A stretch of DNA of 64,000 nucleotides from assembly GCA_013178015.1 (NCBI GenBank), contig JABLXR010000031.1, forward strand, positions 21,108 to 85,107. Direction: 5' to 3'. This document shows positions 3,343-63,838 of the stretch, one piece after another. The position numbers were made by a program, and so were the translations under genes. Every line of letters starts with the position of its first letter. The first letter of the stretch is position 1. The stretch is from Anaerolineae bacterium (GTDB taxonomy: Bacteria; Chloroflexota; Anaerolineae; DRVO01). The notes beneath the pieces are model-generated. The model worked only from the letters and a program-made list of their open reading frames with translations. It was not told the origin of the DNA and searched no databases.

Positions 3343-3451
3343 CTCAGGGCCCAGGCCAGCCGCCGCCGGACCTTCCGACGGGGTGTGCCGTCCCAATGCC
3401 AGACCTCAGCTGCACCGGATCGGTTTCCAGCGAGTCGCAGGCCGGTCTGAC

Positions 3452-4000
3452 ATGAGGAAGAAGGCCGTGACCGGCTATCGCAGCAGCATGGCACGCAAGG
3501 CCGCCACACTCAGTCTGGCTCTGGTCATCTTGGCCTGTGGCTCTGCGCCCGGCCAGCCGGTGCACGAGGTGCCGGGAGGCGACCCTGTCCGCGCTGCCGA
3601 GGCCTTCCGGGTCCGCGGGTGTGTCTCGTGCCATACCATTCCCGGCATCCGCCTGGCCAACGCCACGGTAGGCCCGCCTCTGACCGATTTCGCTGATCGC
3701 ATGTACATCGCGGGCACCCTCTTGAACACCACCGACAACCTCCTCACCTGGATCCTCACCCCCCAGGCGGTGGAGCCCGGCACTGCCATGCCCAACATGG
3801 GCATGACGGAGCAGGAAGCACGCGACATGACCGCCTACCTCTATACCCTCACCCGTCACGGCGAGCCACGCACCCGCTCTAGCTCGGTTCCCAGTCACAC
3901 ACACGCCTCCGGCGGGGCATCGGCAACCTCGCGAGACGCGGTGGCCGTCGGGCAACGAGGGATCACGCTTACAGACCCGTCTCACCCCCCTCATCGGTGA
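3452..4000 (+). CDS. class I cytochrome c (c551/c552-like) lipoprotein with low-complexity C-terminal tail
   Basis: The ATG at 3452 is followed by a signal/lipobox (LALVILACGS), a CVSCH haem site and the conserved distal Met region (…GTAMPNMG…). The ORF from 3383 is probably an over-extension. Confidence 0.75.
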   Translation: MRKKAVTGYRSSMARKAATLSLALVILACGSAPGQPVHEVPGGDPVRAAEAFRVRGCVSCHTIPGIRLANATVGPPLTDFADRMYIAGTLLNTTDNLLTWILTPQAVEPGTAMPNMGMTEQEARDMTAYLYTLTRHGEPRTRSSSVPSHTHASGGASATSRDAVAVGQRGITLTDPSHPPHR

Positions 4001-4174
4001 GGCCGCGTCCATAGGCGCCTGACGACGGGTCTTGGCACGCCGGCCAAGCCTGTGTCCTTCTTCTCTGCCTCGCGTGCGCCAGCCTGGGGCAGGTTGGGGT
4101 ATAATAGCCTGACCCCACCCCATGGACCCAGGCCGCGTCAGGGTGACGCGGGAGGCCGCAGCAGAGAGGGAGGC

Positions 4175-4708
4175 ATGCCTGAACCGGAAACCATGAAGAG
4201 GCCGGCGCTACTGGACGTGCGCAAGCTGGCTTCGAGCGGCGCCCTGGGGACAGTGCGCTCCTACTATGAGGCCGGAAGCGCCTGGCTGGTTCCAGTGGCA
4301 CTGGCTGCAACTGTGATCTTCACCGCCATGGCGGTGGGCATGCTGCTGCTCTACGGTCAGGGTGGCGCTGCTCAGCCGGCGCCTAGCGCCACTGCGCTTC
4401 CCCTGCCCACCGACACGGCTACGCCCCCGCCCACCATAGAGCCAACGCCTACGGCCGAGCCCACCGCCACTGCCACCCCGGAACCGACCGCCACCCCCAG
4501 CCCGACGCCGCGCCCCACACCTACGCCCACCCCGCCGCCCACGGCCACGCCTGTCCCCATCACCTATACCGTGGAGGCAGGTGACACTCTGAGCGCCATC
4601 GCCCGGGCCCAGGATGTCTCTCTGCAAGCTCTGATAGAGGCCAACGACATCGAGGACCCCAATCGCATCCGCGTGGGTCAGGTCCTGATCATACCACGGT
4701 CGGAGTAG
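4175..4708 (+). CDS. LysM-domain membrane-anchored protein with Pro/Thr-rich linker
   Basis: AGAGGGAGG lies upstream of the ATG at 4175. There is an N-terminal TM helix and a low-complexity PTPTAEPTATATPEPTATPSPTPRPTPTPTPP linker. The C-terminal LysM motif reads YTVEAGDTLSAIA…ANDIEDPNRIRVGQVLIIP. Confidence 0.75.
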   Translation: MPEPETMKRPALLDVRKLASSGALGTVRSYYEAGSAWLVPVALAATVIFTAMAVGMLLLYGQGGAAQPAPSATALPLPTDTATPPPTIEPTPTAEPTATATPEPTATPSPTPRPTPTPTPPPTATPVPITYTVEAGDTLSAIARAQDVSLQALIEANDIEDPNRIRVGQVLIIPRSE

Positions 4709-12421: not shown

Positions 12422-12916
12422 CTAGCCCACCAGTGCTTGCAGCACCGATCGAACCAGAGAAGCAGCGGGGGCGCTCAGCAGGAGCGCTGTCCCTACCACC
12501 ATGCCGGCCTCCACCAGCCCGACCGCCACGTTCCCACGCTGCAGCTCGAGCTTCTCGTCAATGGGGCCGGTCATCAGGTTGTATAGCCCGGCCGAAAGAA
12601 TCACCGCCAGCGCTCCCACGCCTACCCCGAACAGCAGGCGCAGGCCCTCGATCAGGAGGACCACTGCCGCCTCCCCCGGCCCCAGATCCAGACCCTCCAA
12701 GGGCACCGAGACCACCGGGTAGATCACTAGCGCTACTCCGAAGATCACTCCAGCCAGAACCGCACCCACGGCCGCATTGCCCCGGGCAATCTCGTCCCAG
12801 ACGTCTACGCGCGGCGTCAGAGCCTGAAAGAGAGAAGCCGAGAGGTACACGCCGATGGCAGCAACTATGCCCACCACCACCAGGCGGGCCAGCGCGATGA
12901 CCAGCCACAGTCCCAT
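12422..12916 (-). CDS. DUF350-like integral membrane protein
   Basis: Four or more TM helices. A repeated D..EIARGNAAVG / ELQRGNVAVG motif pair is characteristic of DUF350. Confidence 0.5.
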   Translation of the reverse strand: MGLWLVIALARLVVVGIVAAIGVYLSASLFQALTPRVDVWDEIARGNAAVGAVLAGVIFGVALVIYPVVSVPLEGLDLGPGEAAVVLLIEGLRLLFGVGVGALAVILSAGLYNLMTGPIDEKLELQRGNVAVGLVEAGMVVGTALLLSAPAASLVRSVLQALVG

Positions 12917-51376: not shown

Positions 51377-51895
51377 CTACTCCTGCGATCGCTCGGTCTG
51401 GGCCAGGCCCAGGTCGCGGCGGGTCTTCTCCACCAGGCCACCCGCCTCGATGATCTCCATCATGAACTCGGGGTACGGCTGCGACTGGTACACGGCGCCG
51501 GTGTCCAGGTTCTCGATCCTGCCGGACTCCAGGTCCACCTGCAGCCGTTGCCCGTCCTCCGTACCGGCAACGGCCTCGGGCGAAACCAGGATGGGAAGCC
51601 CAATGTTGATGGCGTTGCGGTAGAAGATGCGGGCGAAGCTCTCCGCTATCACCGCGCTCACGCCCGCTGCCTTGATGGCCAGCGGTGCATGCTCGCGCGA
51701 GGATCCGCAACCGAAGTTCGGCCCCGCCACTATCATGTCGCCTCTCCGAACCGCTGCAGCGAAGCGGCCGTCTAGGTCCTCCATGCAGTGGCCAGCTAGC
51801 TGATCCGGTTCGGAGACGTTCAGGTAGCGAGCCGGTATGATGGCGTCTGTGTCCACGTTTGCCCCGTACTTCCACGCCCTTCCTTGCAGCTTCAT
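51377..51895 (-). CDS. leuD: 3-isopropylmalate dehydratase small subunit
   Basis: 172 aa. …[14 protein letters not shown]…. Confidence 0.9.
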
Positions 51896-60555: not shown

Positions 60556-62232
60556 TCAGTCCTCAGCCAGAACGGCGCCGGTGTTGGCCGACGTGACGAG
60601 CTTCGCGTAACGCCTCAAGTAGCCCCGTTTCACCCGCGGCTCCCACACCGGAAGCTCCGCGAGCCGCCTCCGTATCTCCTCGTCCGCTAGCTCTACCTCG
60701 ATCAGCCCAGCCTCGATGTCCATGGATACTATGTCGCCGTCCCGTAGAGCAGCGATCGGGCCCCGTTCGGCCGCTTCGGGAGAAACGTGCCCCACGGCAG
60801 CCCCCCGAGTGGCACCCGAGAACCGCCCGTCCGTCAGAAGTGCGACCTGCCCGTCTAGTCCCATCCCTGACAGGATCGAAGTGGGAGTCAGCATCTCCCG
60901 CATTCCCGGCCCTCCCTTGGGGCCCTCGTACCGGATCACCAGCACTTCTCCTTTCTCGAACCGACGCGCCAGGAAGGCCCTGGTGGCCTCCTCCTCGCTA
61001 TCGAACACTCGCACCGGACCACGCAGTCTCATGCGGTCGGCGGCTACGGCGGCCTTCTTGATCACTGCTCCCATCGGGGCCAGGTTGCCGAAAAGCACCG
61101 CCAACCCTCCGGTACGGCTGTATGGATCTGCCAGAGGGCGAATCACGGCCGGGTCCTGCACGGCAGCCGCCTGCACCACGGACTCAATCCCACCCGGCGC
61201 CACCACCTTGGCGGACAAGTTCAGCAGCCCGGCGTCTGCCAATCTCCTTTGCACCGCCGGAATCCCGCCTGCCAGGTGTAGCTCCTCCAGTCGGTGCCCG
61301 CCCACCGCCGGGCTCATCTTGGCCAGGTGCGGGGTACGGGCGCTGACCTCATTGACCTGCTCCAGCGAGAGAGGTACCCGGGCCTCCCGGGCTATGGCCA
61401 GCAAGTGCAGCACGGTGTTGGTCGAGCCGCCCAGCGCCATGTCCACGCTCAGGGCATTGGCGAAGGCCGCCGGACTAAGGATGTCCAGAGCCCTCACCCC
61501 CTCCCGGATGAGGTCCATCACCCGCATTCCCGTCCGCCGGGCTAGACCCAGGCGGTCGCCCGACACGGCCGGAACGGTACCATTGCCAGGCAGCGCCATC
61601 CCCAGGGCCTCCGTGAGGCAGTTCATGGTGTTGGCGGTGAACATCCCCGCGCATGACCCGCAACCTGGGCAGGCGGCCCGTTCCAGCCGATCGAGTTCGT
61701 CCTCCGTCATAGCGCCACTCGCGACGGCGCCCACGGCCATGAACACATCATTGAGGTCCACCAGCCGGCCTTCGTGTCGGCCAGCTAGCATGGGCCCACC
61801 GGAGACAATGATGCAGGGCACGTTCAGCCGGGCGGCCGCCATCAGCATGCCCGGCACGATCTTGTCGCAACTGGCCACCAAGACCAGGCCGTCGAACGCG
61901 TGCGCCTCCGCCAAGCTCTCCACCGAGTCCACCACTAGTTCCCGACTGGCCAGGGAGTAGCACATGCCGGCGTGGTTCATAGCGATGCCATCGCAAATGG
62001 CCGGCACATTGACCTCGAAGGGAGTCCCCCCGGCCATGCGTACCCCAGCCTTGACCGCCTCGGCTACCCGGTCCAGGTGTTGATGCCCCGGTATTACTTC
62101 GCTGTAGGAGTTGACCACCCCTACCAGCGGGCGGGCCATCTCCTCGTCGGTGACCCCGAGCGCGCGGAGTAGAGACCGGTGGGGGGCCCGCTCGATTCCT
62201 TTGGTGACGGCGTCGCTACGGCTGGTACCCAT
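60556..62232 (-). CDS. ilvD: dihydroxy-acid dehydratase
   Basis: 558 aa. …[12 protein letters not shown]…. Fe-S ligands in …[17 protein letters not shown]…. Confidence 0.95.
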
Positions 62233-62526
62233 GTGTCACTCCTGTGCAGTCTGAATGAAAGAGGCGCACTCGCCTCGCCTTCCGGCTGAAGAGTGCGCCC
62301 TCGCTGTGAGGCCCTTCCCTCACGCTCTTCAGAAGAGAGCTCCGCACACAACAAAGAACCTCCCTTGTCGGGAGGTTCGTACGAACTGATCTATGCTACT
62401 TGGCGCTCAGGCCTACTTCCTCCCGACAAGCGGCGACCGCTCCTCAAGTACGAGGAGCACGGTAATTACGAGGAGTAGGCCCTTAGGTTGGCCGGGTGTC
62501 TGGTCCAAATCCCACCTCGGACGAAT
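62233..62526 (-). promoter_or_regulatory. structured 5' leader of the ilv-leu operon (two terminator-like hairpins; candidate attenuator/T-box-like element)
   Basis: The leader is about 290 nt between the predicted promoter and the ilvD ATG. A 13-bp long-range stem GCUUGUCGGGAGG/CCUCCCGACAAGG is followed by UUCUUUGUUGUGUG. A second hairpin GGCGCACUC…GAGUGCGCC followed by UCUUUCAUUC lies about 25 nt before the RBS. Confidence 0.4.
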
Positions 62527-62532
62527 GGCGCC

Positions 62533-62561
62533 ATACTACCACGCCGCGATGGACCTGTCAA
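62533..62561 (-). promoter_or_regulatory. candidate sigma70 promoter (TTGACA-N17-TAGTAT on minus strand) for the ilv-leu operon
   Basis: The reverse complement of 62533-62561 reads TTGACAggtccatcgcggcgtggTAGTAT. Confidence 0.4.
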
Positions 62562-62974
62562 ACGGGCCACAGCTCGAGATTGCGTGGGCCGGTGCCCACC
62601 AGCATAGCCGCTCGGGTGCTTCCCCACGTTCGGCCCACGAGAGCAGTCCCCGACAACCCTGCGGGTATACCCCCCTTCGAGCGTTGCGCGCCCCCACGCG
62701 CGCCCTGCCTCCACCCGAAGACCGTCGCCTTGCCGCCGCCGCCAACCGCGGAGCCTGCTCTGAGAGGCTGCGCGCAGACCGCCTACGCCGCTTCACCCGT
62801 ACTGCTGCCGGGTGAACACACTTGTGCCCTCGTTCGTGAACTCCTGCTCGGACGGAACTTGCGAGCCTCGCCCCCGAGCCGACGGCCGCTACCGGCACGC
62901 AGCCAACTAGGCTATAATCCCTGCTGAAGACCCGGCTTCCACGTCGTTTGCTCCCCTCGTCGAAGGAGAGACTC

Positions 62975-63838
62975 ATGTACACCGTCAGGACCGTCAACGG
63001 GATCCCCTATCGCCTCCTCGGCTCCACTGGCGAAGAGGTCAGTATCATCGGTGTCGGTGGGTTCCATATCGGCCGCTACCGCGACCGGGAGCTGGGGGTG
63101 CGCATTGTACGCACGGCGCTGAACGAAGGCGTCAACTTCCTGGACAACGCCTGGTGCTACAACGATGGGCTGAGCGAGGAGATAATGGGTCTCGCCCTGC
63201 TGGGCGGCTACCGCGACCAGGCTTTCCTCATGACCAAGAACCACGGGAGGGACGCGCCCACGTTCCGCGCCCAGCTGGAGCAGAGCCTGCGAAGGCTCCA
63301 GACCGACAGAATTGACCTTCTCCAGCTTCACGAGATCATTGACGATGGCGTTCCTCAGCGCATTCTCTCCCAAGGCGTCGTAGAGGCCGCGCTGGAGGCC
63401 AAGAAGCAGGGCAAGATCCGTTACGTCGGGTTCACCGGTCATCGCTGGCCCCGACTACTGGAGGAGATGCTCGAGGGGAGCGACATCTGGGACGCGGTCC
63501 AGCTCCCCGTCAACCTGCTGGACCACCACTACCGGAGCTTCGCCCGCTCCCTGATCCCACGCCTGAGCGAAGCCGGCATCGGGATCATCGGGATGAAGAG
63601 CCTTGCCGGAGGCAACTTGCTTCGGGCGGGTGTCTCCGTGCGAGAGGCGATTTCGTACTCGCTATCGCAGGCGGTATCCACCCTGGTCTGCGGCATGGAC
63701 TCCCTTGACGTCCTGGAGCAGAACCTGGCCATAGTGAGAGACTGGCACCCCCTATCGGCCGAAGAGCAGAGCCGGCTCCTCGACCGAGTAGCGCTGGCAG
63801 CAGAGACCGGGCATCTAGAGCACTACAAGACTGGCTAG
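62975..63838 (+). CDS. aldo/keto reductase
   Basis: The ATG at 62975 follows GAAGGAGAG. …IIGVGGFHIGRY…, NAWCYNDGLSEEIMG and the AKR catalytic tetrad region are present. Confidence 0.85.
   Translation: MYTVRTVNGIPYRLLGSTGEEVSIIGVGGFHIGRYRDRELGVRIVRTALNEGVNFLDNAWCYNDGLSEEIMGLALLGGYRDQAFLMTKNHGRDAPTFRAQLEQSLRRLQTDRIDLLQLHEIIDDGVPQRILSQGVVEAALEAKKQGKIRYVGFTGHRWPRLLEEMLEGSDIWDAVQLPVNLLDHHYRSFARSLIPRLSEAGIGIIGMKSLAGGNLLRAGVSVREAISYSLSQAVSTLVCGMDSLDVLEQNLAIVRDWHPLSAEEQSRLLDRVALAAETGHLEHYKTG

Follow-up and report, generated by a model that had tools for sequence, protein, structure and literature searches.

In the 64,000-nucleotide stretch of an Anaerolineae bacterium genome analysed here (contig JABLXR010000031.1, positions 21,108 to 85,107; hereafter the window), the gene ilvD is preceded on the minus strand by a leader that is very probably a ribosome-mediated transcription attenuator, in which translation of a short leader peptide would report on the charging of Leu, Val and Ile tRNA, and possibly of Thr tRNA. 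The proposal draws on comparative sequence analysis and on folding models. Between 62561 and 62230 the minus strand carries, in this order, a promoter, a Shine-Dalgarno (SD) sequence, a leader-peptide open reading frame (ORF), an intrinsic terminator (T1), a further structured RNA that we call element 2, and the SD and ATG of ilvD, and the entire leader folds more stably than shuffled versions of itself (z = -2.9). Homologous leaders lie 5' of ilvD in 13 other Anaerolineae-type lineages. An earlier, sequence-only reading of the region had named it a candidate attenuator with a leader of about 290 nucleotides (nt), and both points are borne out, the former by a conserved terminator/antiterminator switch 5' of the presumed ilv-leu operon and the latter by the sequence anatomy. 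The features on which the argument turns are the following.

62561-62533, minus strand: promoter, with -35 TTGACA (62561-62556), 17-nt spacer, TG of an extended -10 (62541-62540) and -10 TAGTAT (62538-62533)
62518-62512, minus strand: leader SD, GAGGUGG, as read from the sequence
62508-62413, minus strand: leader-peptide ORF, TTG start, 31 codons plus TAG, product (M)DQTPGQPKGLLLVITVLLVLEERSPLVGRK*
62482-62470, minus strand: region 1, GGGCCUACUCCUC (codons G-L-L-L), predicted to pair with 62424-62410 (GGGAGGAAGUAGGCC, stop codon included) as a putative anti-antiterminator
62478-62446, minus strand: regulatory codon run LLLVITVLLVL, with 6 Leu, 3 Val, 1 Ile and 1 Thr
62458-62439, minus strand: hairpin P1 within the ORF, GCUCCUC-GUACUU-GAGGAGC (codons L-L-V-L-E-E)
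62430-62419, minus strand: region 2, the 5' arm of the antiterminator, CUUGUCGGGAGG, ending 3 nt before the stop codon (62415-62413)
62375-62364, minus strand: region 3, the 3' arm of the antiterminator, CCUCCCGACAAG, spanning part of the T1 5' arm, the loop and the first base of the T1 3' arm
62378-62356 and 62355-62346, minus strand: T1, a 9-bp hairpin GAACCUCCC-GACAA-GGGAGGUUC followed by the U-tract UUUGUUGUGU
62243-62239 and 62232-62230, minus strand: ilvD SD (AGGAG) and ilvD start codon (ATG)

Leader ORF, terminator and antiterminator in 14 lineages

For comparison we used 11 contigs with IlvD identities of 85, 79, 78, 78, 76, 73, 73, 72, 69, 69 and 68%, and added two species-representative loci, L001 and L004, at 66% and 63%; a scan of reference genomes for IlvD gave distant relatives only, at most 66% identical, and the closer ones came by way of the protein database. 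Together with the window these loci make up an alignment of 14 sequences (A1), to which all counts by lineage below refer. The leader ORF of the window encodes LDQTPGQPKGLLLVITVLLVLEERSPLVGRK*, that is, MDQTPGQPKG-LLLVITVLLVL-EERSPLVGRK, with Leu, Val or Ile at ten of eleven consecutive core codons. The sequence-only reading had reported that no Ile/Val/Leu-rich leader ORF was present and had accordingly judged classic peptide attenuation unlikely. Both statements are overturned by this ORF, which was probably missed because its start is TTG, and the ORF, its coding constraint and the covariation of T1 with the antiterminator support exactly the mechanism that had been set aside.

An equivalent short ORF is found in all 14 lineages, starting with TTG in seven, ATG in four and GTG in three, a tally that depends on the start-picking rule applied. 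Homologues read ...GLLLVITELLVLEEPFPLVGRK (L081), ...GLLLVITTLLVLEERSALVGRQWA (L083), ...GVILTIIGLLVVKELCWAVGRSCA (L084), ...NAIISLILVKLLYLQELVAVGRDPM (L117) and ...VIILIGLLVLQEPLPVGRETAH (L001), and that of L114 contains ...GLTLTIMVLLVVEEHSVLVGG... Across the 11-codon run, 78% of codons specify Leu, Ile or Val in the reading frame, compared with 24% and 1% in the other two frames, and U occupies the middle position of 122 of the 154 codons. Several positions of the run are occupied by one of these three residues in 13 or 14 of the 14 lineages while codon bases 1 and 3 vary; since the amino-acid class is held while the nucleotides change, selection appears to act on the class, as expected for regulatory codons. 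Residues past the run that look conserved (LLVLEE and VGR) coincide with the RNA helices P1 and region 2.

Two side observations concern this ORF. Thr codons recur within the branched-chain run in many lineages, which, taken together with asd and thrC in the downstream cluster, hints that Thr charging is also sensed. In L115 (about 1160-1250) the UAA that closes the leader ORF immediately follows P1 and precedes region 2 by 7 nt, instead of lying past region 2; the remainder of the attenuator is intact, and part of region 2 would still be within reach of a ribosome terminating there.

The promoter is the sole sigma-70-like match on the minus strand within 16 kb in a consensus scan, and would place the transcription start site near 62526, about 7 nt past the -10. 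It had already been noticed as TTGACA-17-TAGTAT in the sequence-only reading; to this we add the TG of the extended -10 and its conservation, as TTGACA-N14-TGnTAnnnT is kept in 14 of 14 leaders, 11-52 nt 5' of the leader start codon. GAGGUG stands 4-6 nt 5' of the TTG start in the window, L081, L082, L083, L114 and L115, and exactly 24 nt separate the -10 from the TTG in five of these (the window, L081, L082, L083 and L114). This promoter and the TTG are presumably the ones used.

T1 was detected in all 14 lineages, with four of its nine pairs changed on both sides. When P1 and T1 were scored on alignment A1, pairing was retained in 100% of 222 cells, six pairs were changed on both sides, and none of 500 shuffles matched this result. 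The closing pair of P1 is CG in nine lineages, GC in three and UA in two, a compensatory pattern, and P1 probably serves as an RNA polymerase pause hairpin. The antiterminator formed by regions 2 and 3 has 12 bp in the window, and its 9-bp core (GUCGGGAGG with CCUCCCGAC) is conserved across the 14 lineages. Three core pairs use bases of the T1 loop, which are unpaired in T1, and these bases change in step with region 2 (GUC/GAC in the window, GUU/AAC in L117 and L001, UUU/AAA in L119). The pair of alignment columns 78 and 141, which also shows loop bases covarying with region 2, is CG in eight lineages, UA in four and UG in two, and in L004 both partners are altered together, GGUUGGG-AA-GAGGCU pairing with AGCCUC-A-CCCAACC. 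T1 alone cannot account for the patterns. The orthologue comparison that had been proposed alongside the original observation thus yields compensatory changes in T1, the antiterminator and P1, and the refuting condition named there, a lack of hairpin conservation in relatives, is decided in favour of the finding for T1.

The long-range stem described there, with an alternative pairing partner, corresponds to this antiterminator; its length is 12 rather than 13 bp, and the U-rich tract that had been assigned to it is present but belongs to the local 9-bp T1 hairpin, which reuses the same 3' sequence and is the alternative partner. Alternative folds of the window leader form a thermodynamic hierarchy, at -36.2 kcal/mol for the pairing of regions 1 and 2 (1:2), -29.9 for the antiterminator (2:3), -16.5 for T1 and -12.5 for P1, and the 1:2 pairing is present in the minimum-free-energy structure of the window leader. 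In other lineages different sequences would sequester region 2 in an equivalent way.

Predicted behaviour of the switch and rival explanations

Under the proposed mechanism, a ribosome would load at GAGGUG-N4-UUG and translate the 31-codon ORF, with RNA polymerase probably held at P1 until the ribosome catches up. When branched-chain aminoacyl-tRNA is plentiful, the ribosome would reach the UAG and cover region 2, leaving region 3 free to form T1 with region 4, and transcription would stop before ilvD. If the leader were not translated, region 1 would pair with region 2 and T1 would form too. Under a shortage of a branched-chain amino acid, the ribosome would stall in LLLVITVLLVL and mask region 1, and the freed region 2 would capture region 3 once it is transcribed, the 12-bp helix at -29.9 kcal/mol being set against -16.5 for T1. 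With T1 blocked, the polymerase would read into ilvD-ilvBN-ilvC-leuA-leuC-asd-thrC-leuD-leuB-ilvE-cimA. The layout of the window leader, in which only 3 nt lie between the end of region 2 and the stop codon, has the classical geometry known from the trp and ilv attenuators.

To model this behaviour, ribosome footprints were masked in silico on transcripts cut at the terminator loop. This approach replaced equilibrium folding of the full attenuator with masks, which was dropped as a test since the terminator wins and nothing is discriminated. In the cut transcripts, a footprint on the first branched-chain codons gave an antiterminator probability of 0.7-1.0 in 13 of 14 lineages, and a footprint at the stop codon reduced it to 0.07 or less in ten of 14, the exceptions being L082, L084, L114 and L117; in the window the stop-codon mask abolished the antiterminator. 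With no ribosome, the antiterminator probability was low in most lineages, though not in the window, L082 and L084.

Several of these results and some others weigh against the attenuator reading. With the full terminator present, T1 wins at equilibrium in nearly every condition, that is, almost whatever the ribosome position, and the switch would therefore have to be kinetic, operating during transcription. The ribosome-free cut transcript of the window forms the antiterminator with a probability of 0.99, so that termination in the absence of translation requires 1:2 to have formed first, and across the family the 1:2 pairing cannot be aligned as a single helix. In L082, L084 and L114, where the stop codon is found further 3', the stop mask leaves the antiterminator in place. 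Finally, the ORF product is hydrophobic and 31 residues long, and a small membrane protein is conceivable in principle.

The last point leads to an alternative in which the product of the short ORF is a small hydrophobic membrane peptide with a function of its own, the hairpins serve as ordinary terminators of that small gene, and there is no attenuation at all. The ORF is conserved and its hydrophobic core has a transmembrane-like length, but that core consists almost entirely of Leu, Ile, Val and Thr, whereas membrane helices usually mix in Phe, Ala, Gly and Trp, and searches with Pfam and NCBIfam profiles assigned the leader peptides to no family. Its C-terminal LLVLEE and VGR match P1 and region 2, helices that covary with their partners, the ORF always stands directly 5' of ilvD, whatever the upstream neighbour, and an antiterminator overlapping the end of such an ORF would serve no purpose. 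We therefore hold this explanation to be extremely unlikely. That the short ORF is incidental and the leader is a riboswitch for a metabolite or alarmone (a branched-chain amino acid, a keto acid or ppGpp) fits the length and structure of the leader, with its z of -2.9, and the presence of element 2 as a conserved fold to which no function is assigned. Against it, Rfam returned no match to ppGpp / ykkC subtype 2a or other branched-chain-linked riboswitch classes for either the leader or element 2, the codon run keeps its amino-acid class while its nucleotides vary, which is not the pattern of an aptamer, and the stop codon keeps its placement with respect to region 2. For the leader as a whole we consider such a riboswitch very improbable; it is viable for element 2 only.

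The sequence-only reading had raised a T-box or another RNA switch as a possibility. In a T-box, binding of uncharged tRNA would stabilise the antiterminator, on the model of the ilv-leu leader of Bacillus subtilis. T-boxes, like riboswitches, have been reported in Chloroflexi, where they are the documented form of amino-acid-related RNA control (PMC3766115), one controls the B. subtilis ilv-leu operon (cited in PMC5794164), and the leader does hold a terminator/antiterminator pair. Nonetheless, no Rfam family scored as high as its gathering threshold in either the window or the 13 related loci, and a permissive scan of 62150-62950 with E values up to 10 gave no T-box match (RF00230); the sole match to a leader family was Phe_leader on the T1 hairpin, at 18.8 bits and E 2.2 compared with a gathering score of 55. 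Moreover, the conserved part 5' of the antiterminator looks like a translated ORF, with codon-level constraint, and not a Stem I or specifier structure. The chance that the leader is a T-box or senses tRNA in some other such way is, in our judgement, close to negligible, and the leader-peptide attenuator is the reading that we carry forward.

Element 2, a structured RNA between T1 and ilvD

Between T1 and the ilvD SD lies a second structured region, made up of two supported helices (Pb and Pc) and a possible third (Pa).

62337-62251, minus strand: element 2, a structured RNA of about 85 nt
62332-62325, minus strand: candidate Pa 5' strand, CUGAAGAG, GA-rich, just 5' of Pb
62323-62306, minus strand: Pb hairpin
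62303-62291, minus strand: Pc 5' arm, CGAGGGCGCACUC
62293-62286, minus strand: candidate Pa 3' strand, CUCUUCAG, CU-rich, beginning atop the Pc 5' arm and running into the Pc loop
62271-62261, minus strand: Pc 3' arm, GAGUGCGCCUC
62260-62253, minus strand: U-rich tail after Pc, UUUCAUUC

Element 2 is common to seven lineages (the window, L081, L083, L082, L113, L114 and L084). A covariance model built from them (R1) found it only in these source lineages, always at the same position; neither the window nor 823 kb of loci yielded a further copy. Both Pb and Pc were predicted by RNAalifold on a MAFFT alignment, and in a model-based alignment, which leans towards structure, they pair in 88% of cells, with eight pairs changed on both sides and none of 500 shuffles matching. 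The second hairpin with U-tract that had been noted before the ribosome-binding site corresponds to Pc and its tail (about 62303-62253). Its conservation in relatives is mixed, in contrast to that of T1: the helix is present in seven lineages, but the U-tract is not kept. A U-tract follows Pc directly in the window, L114 and L084, and a U-run follows after 4-5 nt in L082 and L113, whereas L081 and L083, the closest relatives, have none, and the conserved feature is therefore the fold and not a terminator. Invariant bases of element 2 are mostly in helices rather than junctions. L117 and L119 are without any such element, and the hairpins that stand in its place in other lineages are GC-rich and unrelated.

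Because the linker between Pa and Pb varies in length and precludes column-wise scoring, Pa was assessed by comparing cognate with permuted strands. For its 6-bp Watson-Crick core, no partner permutation out of 120 other than the cognate arrangement scores as high as the cognate total, and for 8 bp with G-U pairs allowed 11 of 120 do so, in both cases over five distinct sequence versions. Variants include GGAGAG/CUCUCC in L114 and GUGGAG/CUCCGC in L113, and z-scores of the duplex range from -3.7 to +0.1. Pa pairing, with the topology of an H-type pseudoknot, is thus possible and has modest support from the sequences. A Pa-like pseudoknot pairing in the divergent L115 was no better than in shuffles.

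Our best guess is that element 2 acts as a second, ribosome-independent checkpoint on read-through transcripts, either as a conditional terminator or pause or as a site for a ligand or protein; a hairpin for mRNA stability would be the other leading guess. A simpler account, in which Pc is a plain second intrinsic terminator, constitutive or back-up, or a hairpin that stabilises or processes the mRNA without sensing anything, has a substantial chance of being correct, if somewhat short of even. It draws on the high stability of Pc (-26.8 kcal/mol), on the U-rich tract or nearby U-run in five lineages (the window, L114, L084, L082 and L113), and on both the mostly helical location of the invariant bases and the unrelated GC-rich hairpins that occupy the same place elsewhere. 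The U-tract is, however, absent in the nearest relatives, a constitutive terminator would silence the operon, and Pb and possibly Pa are kept together with Pc, which goes beyond the needs of a plain terminator or stabiliser. The more specific proposal that element 2 is an undescribed cis-regulatory RNA binding a ligand or protein, with an H-type pseudoknot and inserted hairpin and working in tandem with the attenuator, is unlikely on present evidence; element 2 matches no Rfam family. If it were true, tandem sensors would let the 12-gene operon integrate tRNA charging with a second metabolic or stress signal, and a ribosome-dependent and a ribosome-independent sensor placed serially in one leader would be an unusual combination.

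Two other functions were considered for element 2 and rejected: sequestration of the ilvD SD as its main role, as SD accessibility was 0.2-0.7 with no consistent partner, and a second leader peptide, as no conserved ORF was visible in the sequences. We also observed that six of the seven Pb hairpins (window 62306-62323, L081, L082, L113, L114 and L084) have GGA at the boundary of 5' arm and loop, as GGGGA or AGGGA, which by pattern recognition alone resembles CsrA-type binding sites. In L001 the spacer between T1 and ilvD is 388 nt long (about 3660-4020) and holds inverted repeats rich in A and T (ACGTAATACGT, GTAATAAGTAA ... TTACTTATTAC), possibly a small mobile or repeat element that has inserted there.

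Gene cluster, distribution and known attenuators

The genes that the leader would control were assigned with NCBIfam as follows.

62232-47647, minus strand: ilvD-ilvB-ilvN-ilvC-leuA-leuC-asd-thrC-leuD-leuB-ilvE-cimA, 12 genes

The ilvD product matches dihydroxy-acid dehydratase at 769 bits, and is 100% identical to a protein of an uncultured Anaerolineae metagenome-assembled genome; the window has about 65% G+C. The 12 genes probably form a single operon, and no further promoter-like site or strong terminator was found on the minus strand between 62232 and 46500. Within the cluster, leuC is separated from leuD by asd and thrC, and the thrC stop overlaps the leuD start at 51892-51895. In L117 a pyrroline-5-carboxylate reductase-like gene (F420_oxidored/P5CR_dimer, 3354-4250) lies between ilvD and ilvB. 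Directly 5' of the leader promoter in the window, across a gap of 350 nt, is a 176-aa ORF on the minus strand (62912-63442) that has no NCBIfam or Pfam match. The upstream neighbour gene differs at most related loci, and a long gene-free stretch precedes ilvD at every one.

A covariance model spanning P1 through T1 (R2) matched only its 14 source sequences in 823 kb. The remaining 78 ilvD loci (Dehalococcoidia, Chloroflexia, Bacillota, Desulfobacterota and others) gave no match, and the window holds the attenuator just once. A weak match of an attenuator-1 covariance model at 12596-12665 (minus strand; 17.1 bits, E 0.04) is probably due to chance. Scanning metagenomes with the terminator pattern gave 28 matches, mostly unrelated generic terminators, and the three true copies among them all came from lineages already in the comparison set. 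Separately, seven Desulfobacterota loci (L041, L046, L054, L059, L070, L077 and L080) have unrelated Ile/Leu/Val-rich short ORFs 5' of ilvD, for example MNTNIINILLVIILVEVIINTSIRRGS, which end about 90-110 nt upstream of the gene and are presumably independent leader-peptide attenuators; on this account leader-peptide control of ilvD looks recurrent across phyla.

Until examples from Firmicutes were described, leader peptides had been known from Proteobacteria and Actinobacteria alone (Naville and Gautheret, PMC2965389), and for Chloroflexi the genomes were too few to judge leader genes (PMC4833913). Our literature search on Anaerolineae leader peptides returned nothing relevant, and the papers searched gave no description of the mechanism for Chloroflexota. 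The leader family, with at least 14 lineages, is thus new to the curated libraries that we searched and lies in a phylum for which we found no prior description. The conceptual advance is small because the mechanism itself is textbook, yet the family supplies a covariation-backed example of an attenuator from uncultured Anaerolineae that is absent from Rfam and could enter annotation resources. It also points to a pitfall, namely that leader-peptide screens restricted to ATG miss leaders initiated at TTG, and its in-ORF hairpin and element 2 are targets for learning how a slow-growing, high-GC lineage adjusts its attenuation.

Attenuators are known from the enterobacterial ilvGMEDA (ilvL) and ilvBN (ivbL) operons and from the trp, leu, thr, his and phe operons of Proteobacteria. 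The present leader shares with them a short ORF rich in cognate codons, a predicted set of alternative 1:2, 2:3 and 3:4 helices ending in an intrinsic terminator, and a stop codon placed so that a terminating ribosome would block the antiterminator. It differs in having no sequence or profile similarity to them beyond the weak Phe_leader match, in its TTG start and the conserved in-ORF hairpin directly past the regulatory codons, and in its setting, a presumed 12-gene operon in Chloroflexota that also contains asd, thrC and cimA.

Leader-peptide or upstream-ORF control has likewise been described for ilvBNC leaders of Actinobacteria, which are also high-GC and non-proteobacterial (PMC1262725, PMC11857589 and PMC10272879), with a three-hairpin model of leader-peptide attenuation reported for Corynebacterium in the abstract of PMC11857589. 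The first gene there is ilvB rather than ilvD; the phylum is another, and curated models saw no similarity. Published work on ilvD also exists for Listeria monocytogenes (PMC5864092). The B. subtilis ilv-leu leader resembles the present one in being long and structured, with a terminator/antiterminator pair before an ilv-leu operon, but it senses uncharged tRNA-Leu via Stem I and the T-box bulge and has no leader peptide, whereas our leader shows no such signature.

The leader of Staphylococcus aureus ilvD is similar in placing an attenuator peptide ORF, there leucine-rich, 5' of ilvD, the gene with which the ilv-leu operon begins, and there, as here, a T-box was considered and excluded (PMC5794164). 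Its terminator lies 52 nt past the stop codon, compared with about 34 nt here (PMC5794164). The two sequences are unrelated, and the proposed antiterminators differ in design: that of S. aureus would tie up the poly-U tail without disrupting the terminator stem, whereas the one described here would take the T1 5' arm and loop, in the classical geometry. In Firmicutes CodY provides a second layer of control; in the Anaerolineae leader the second layer, if there is one, would be element 2.

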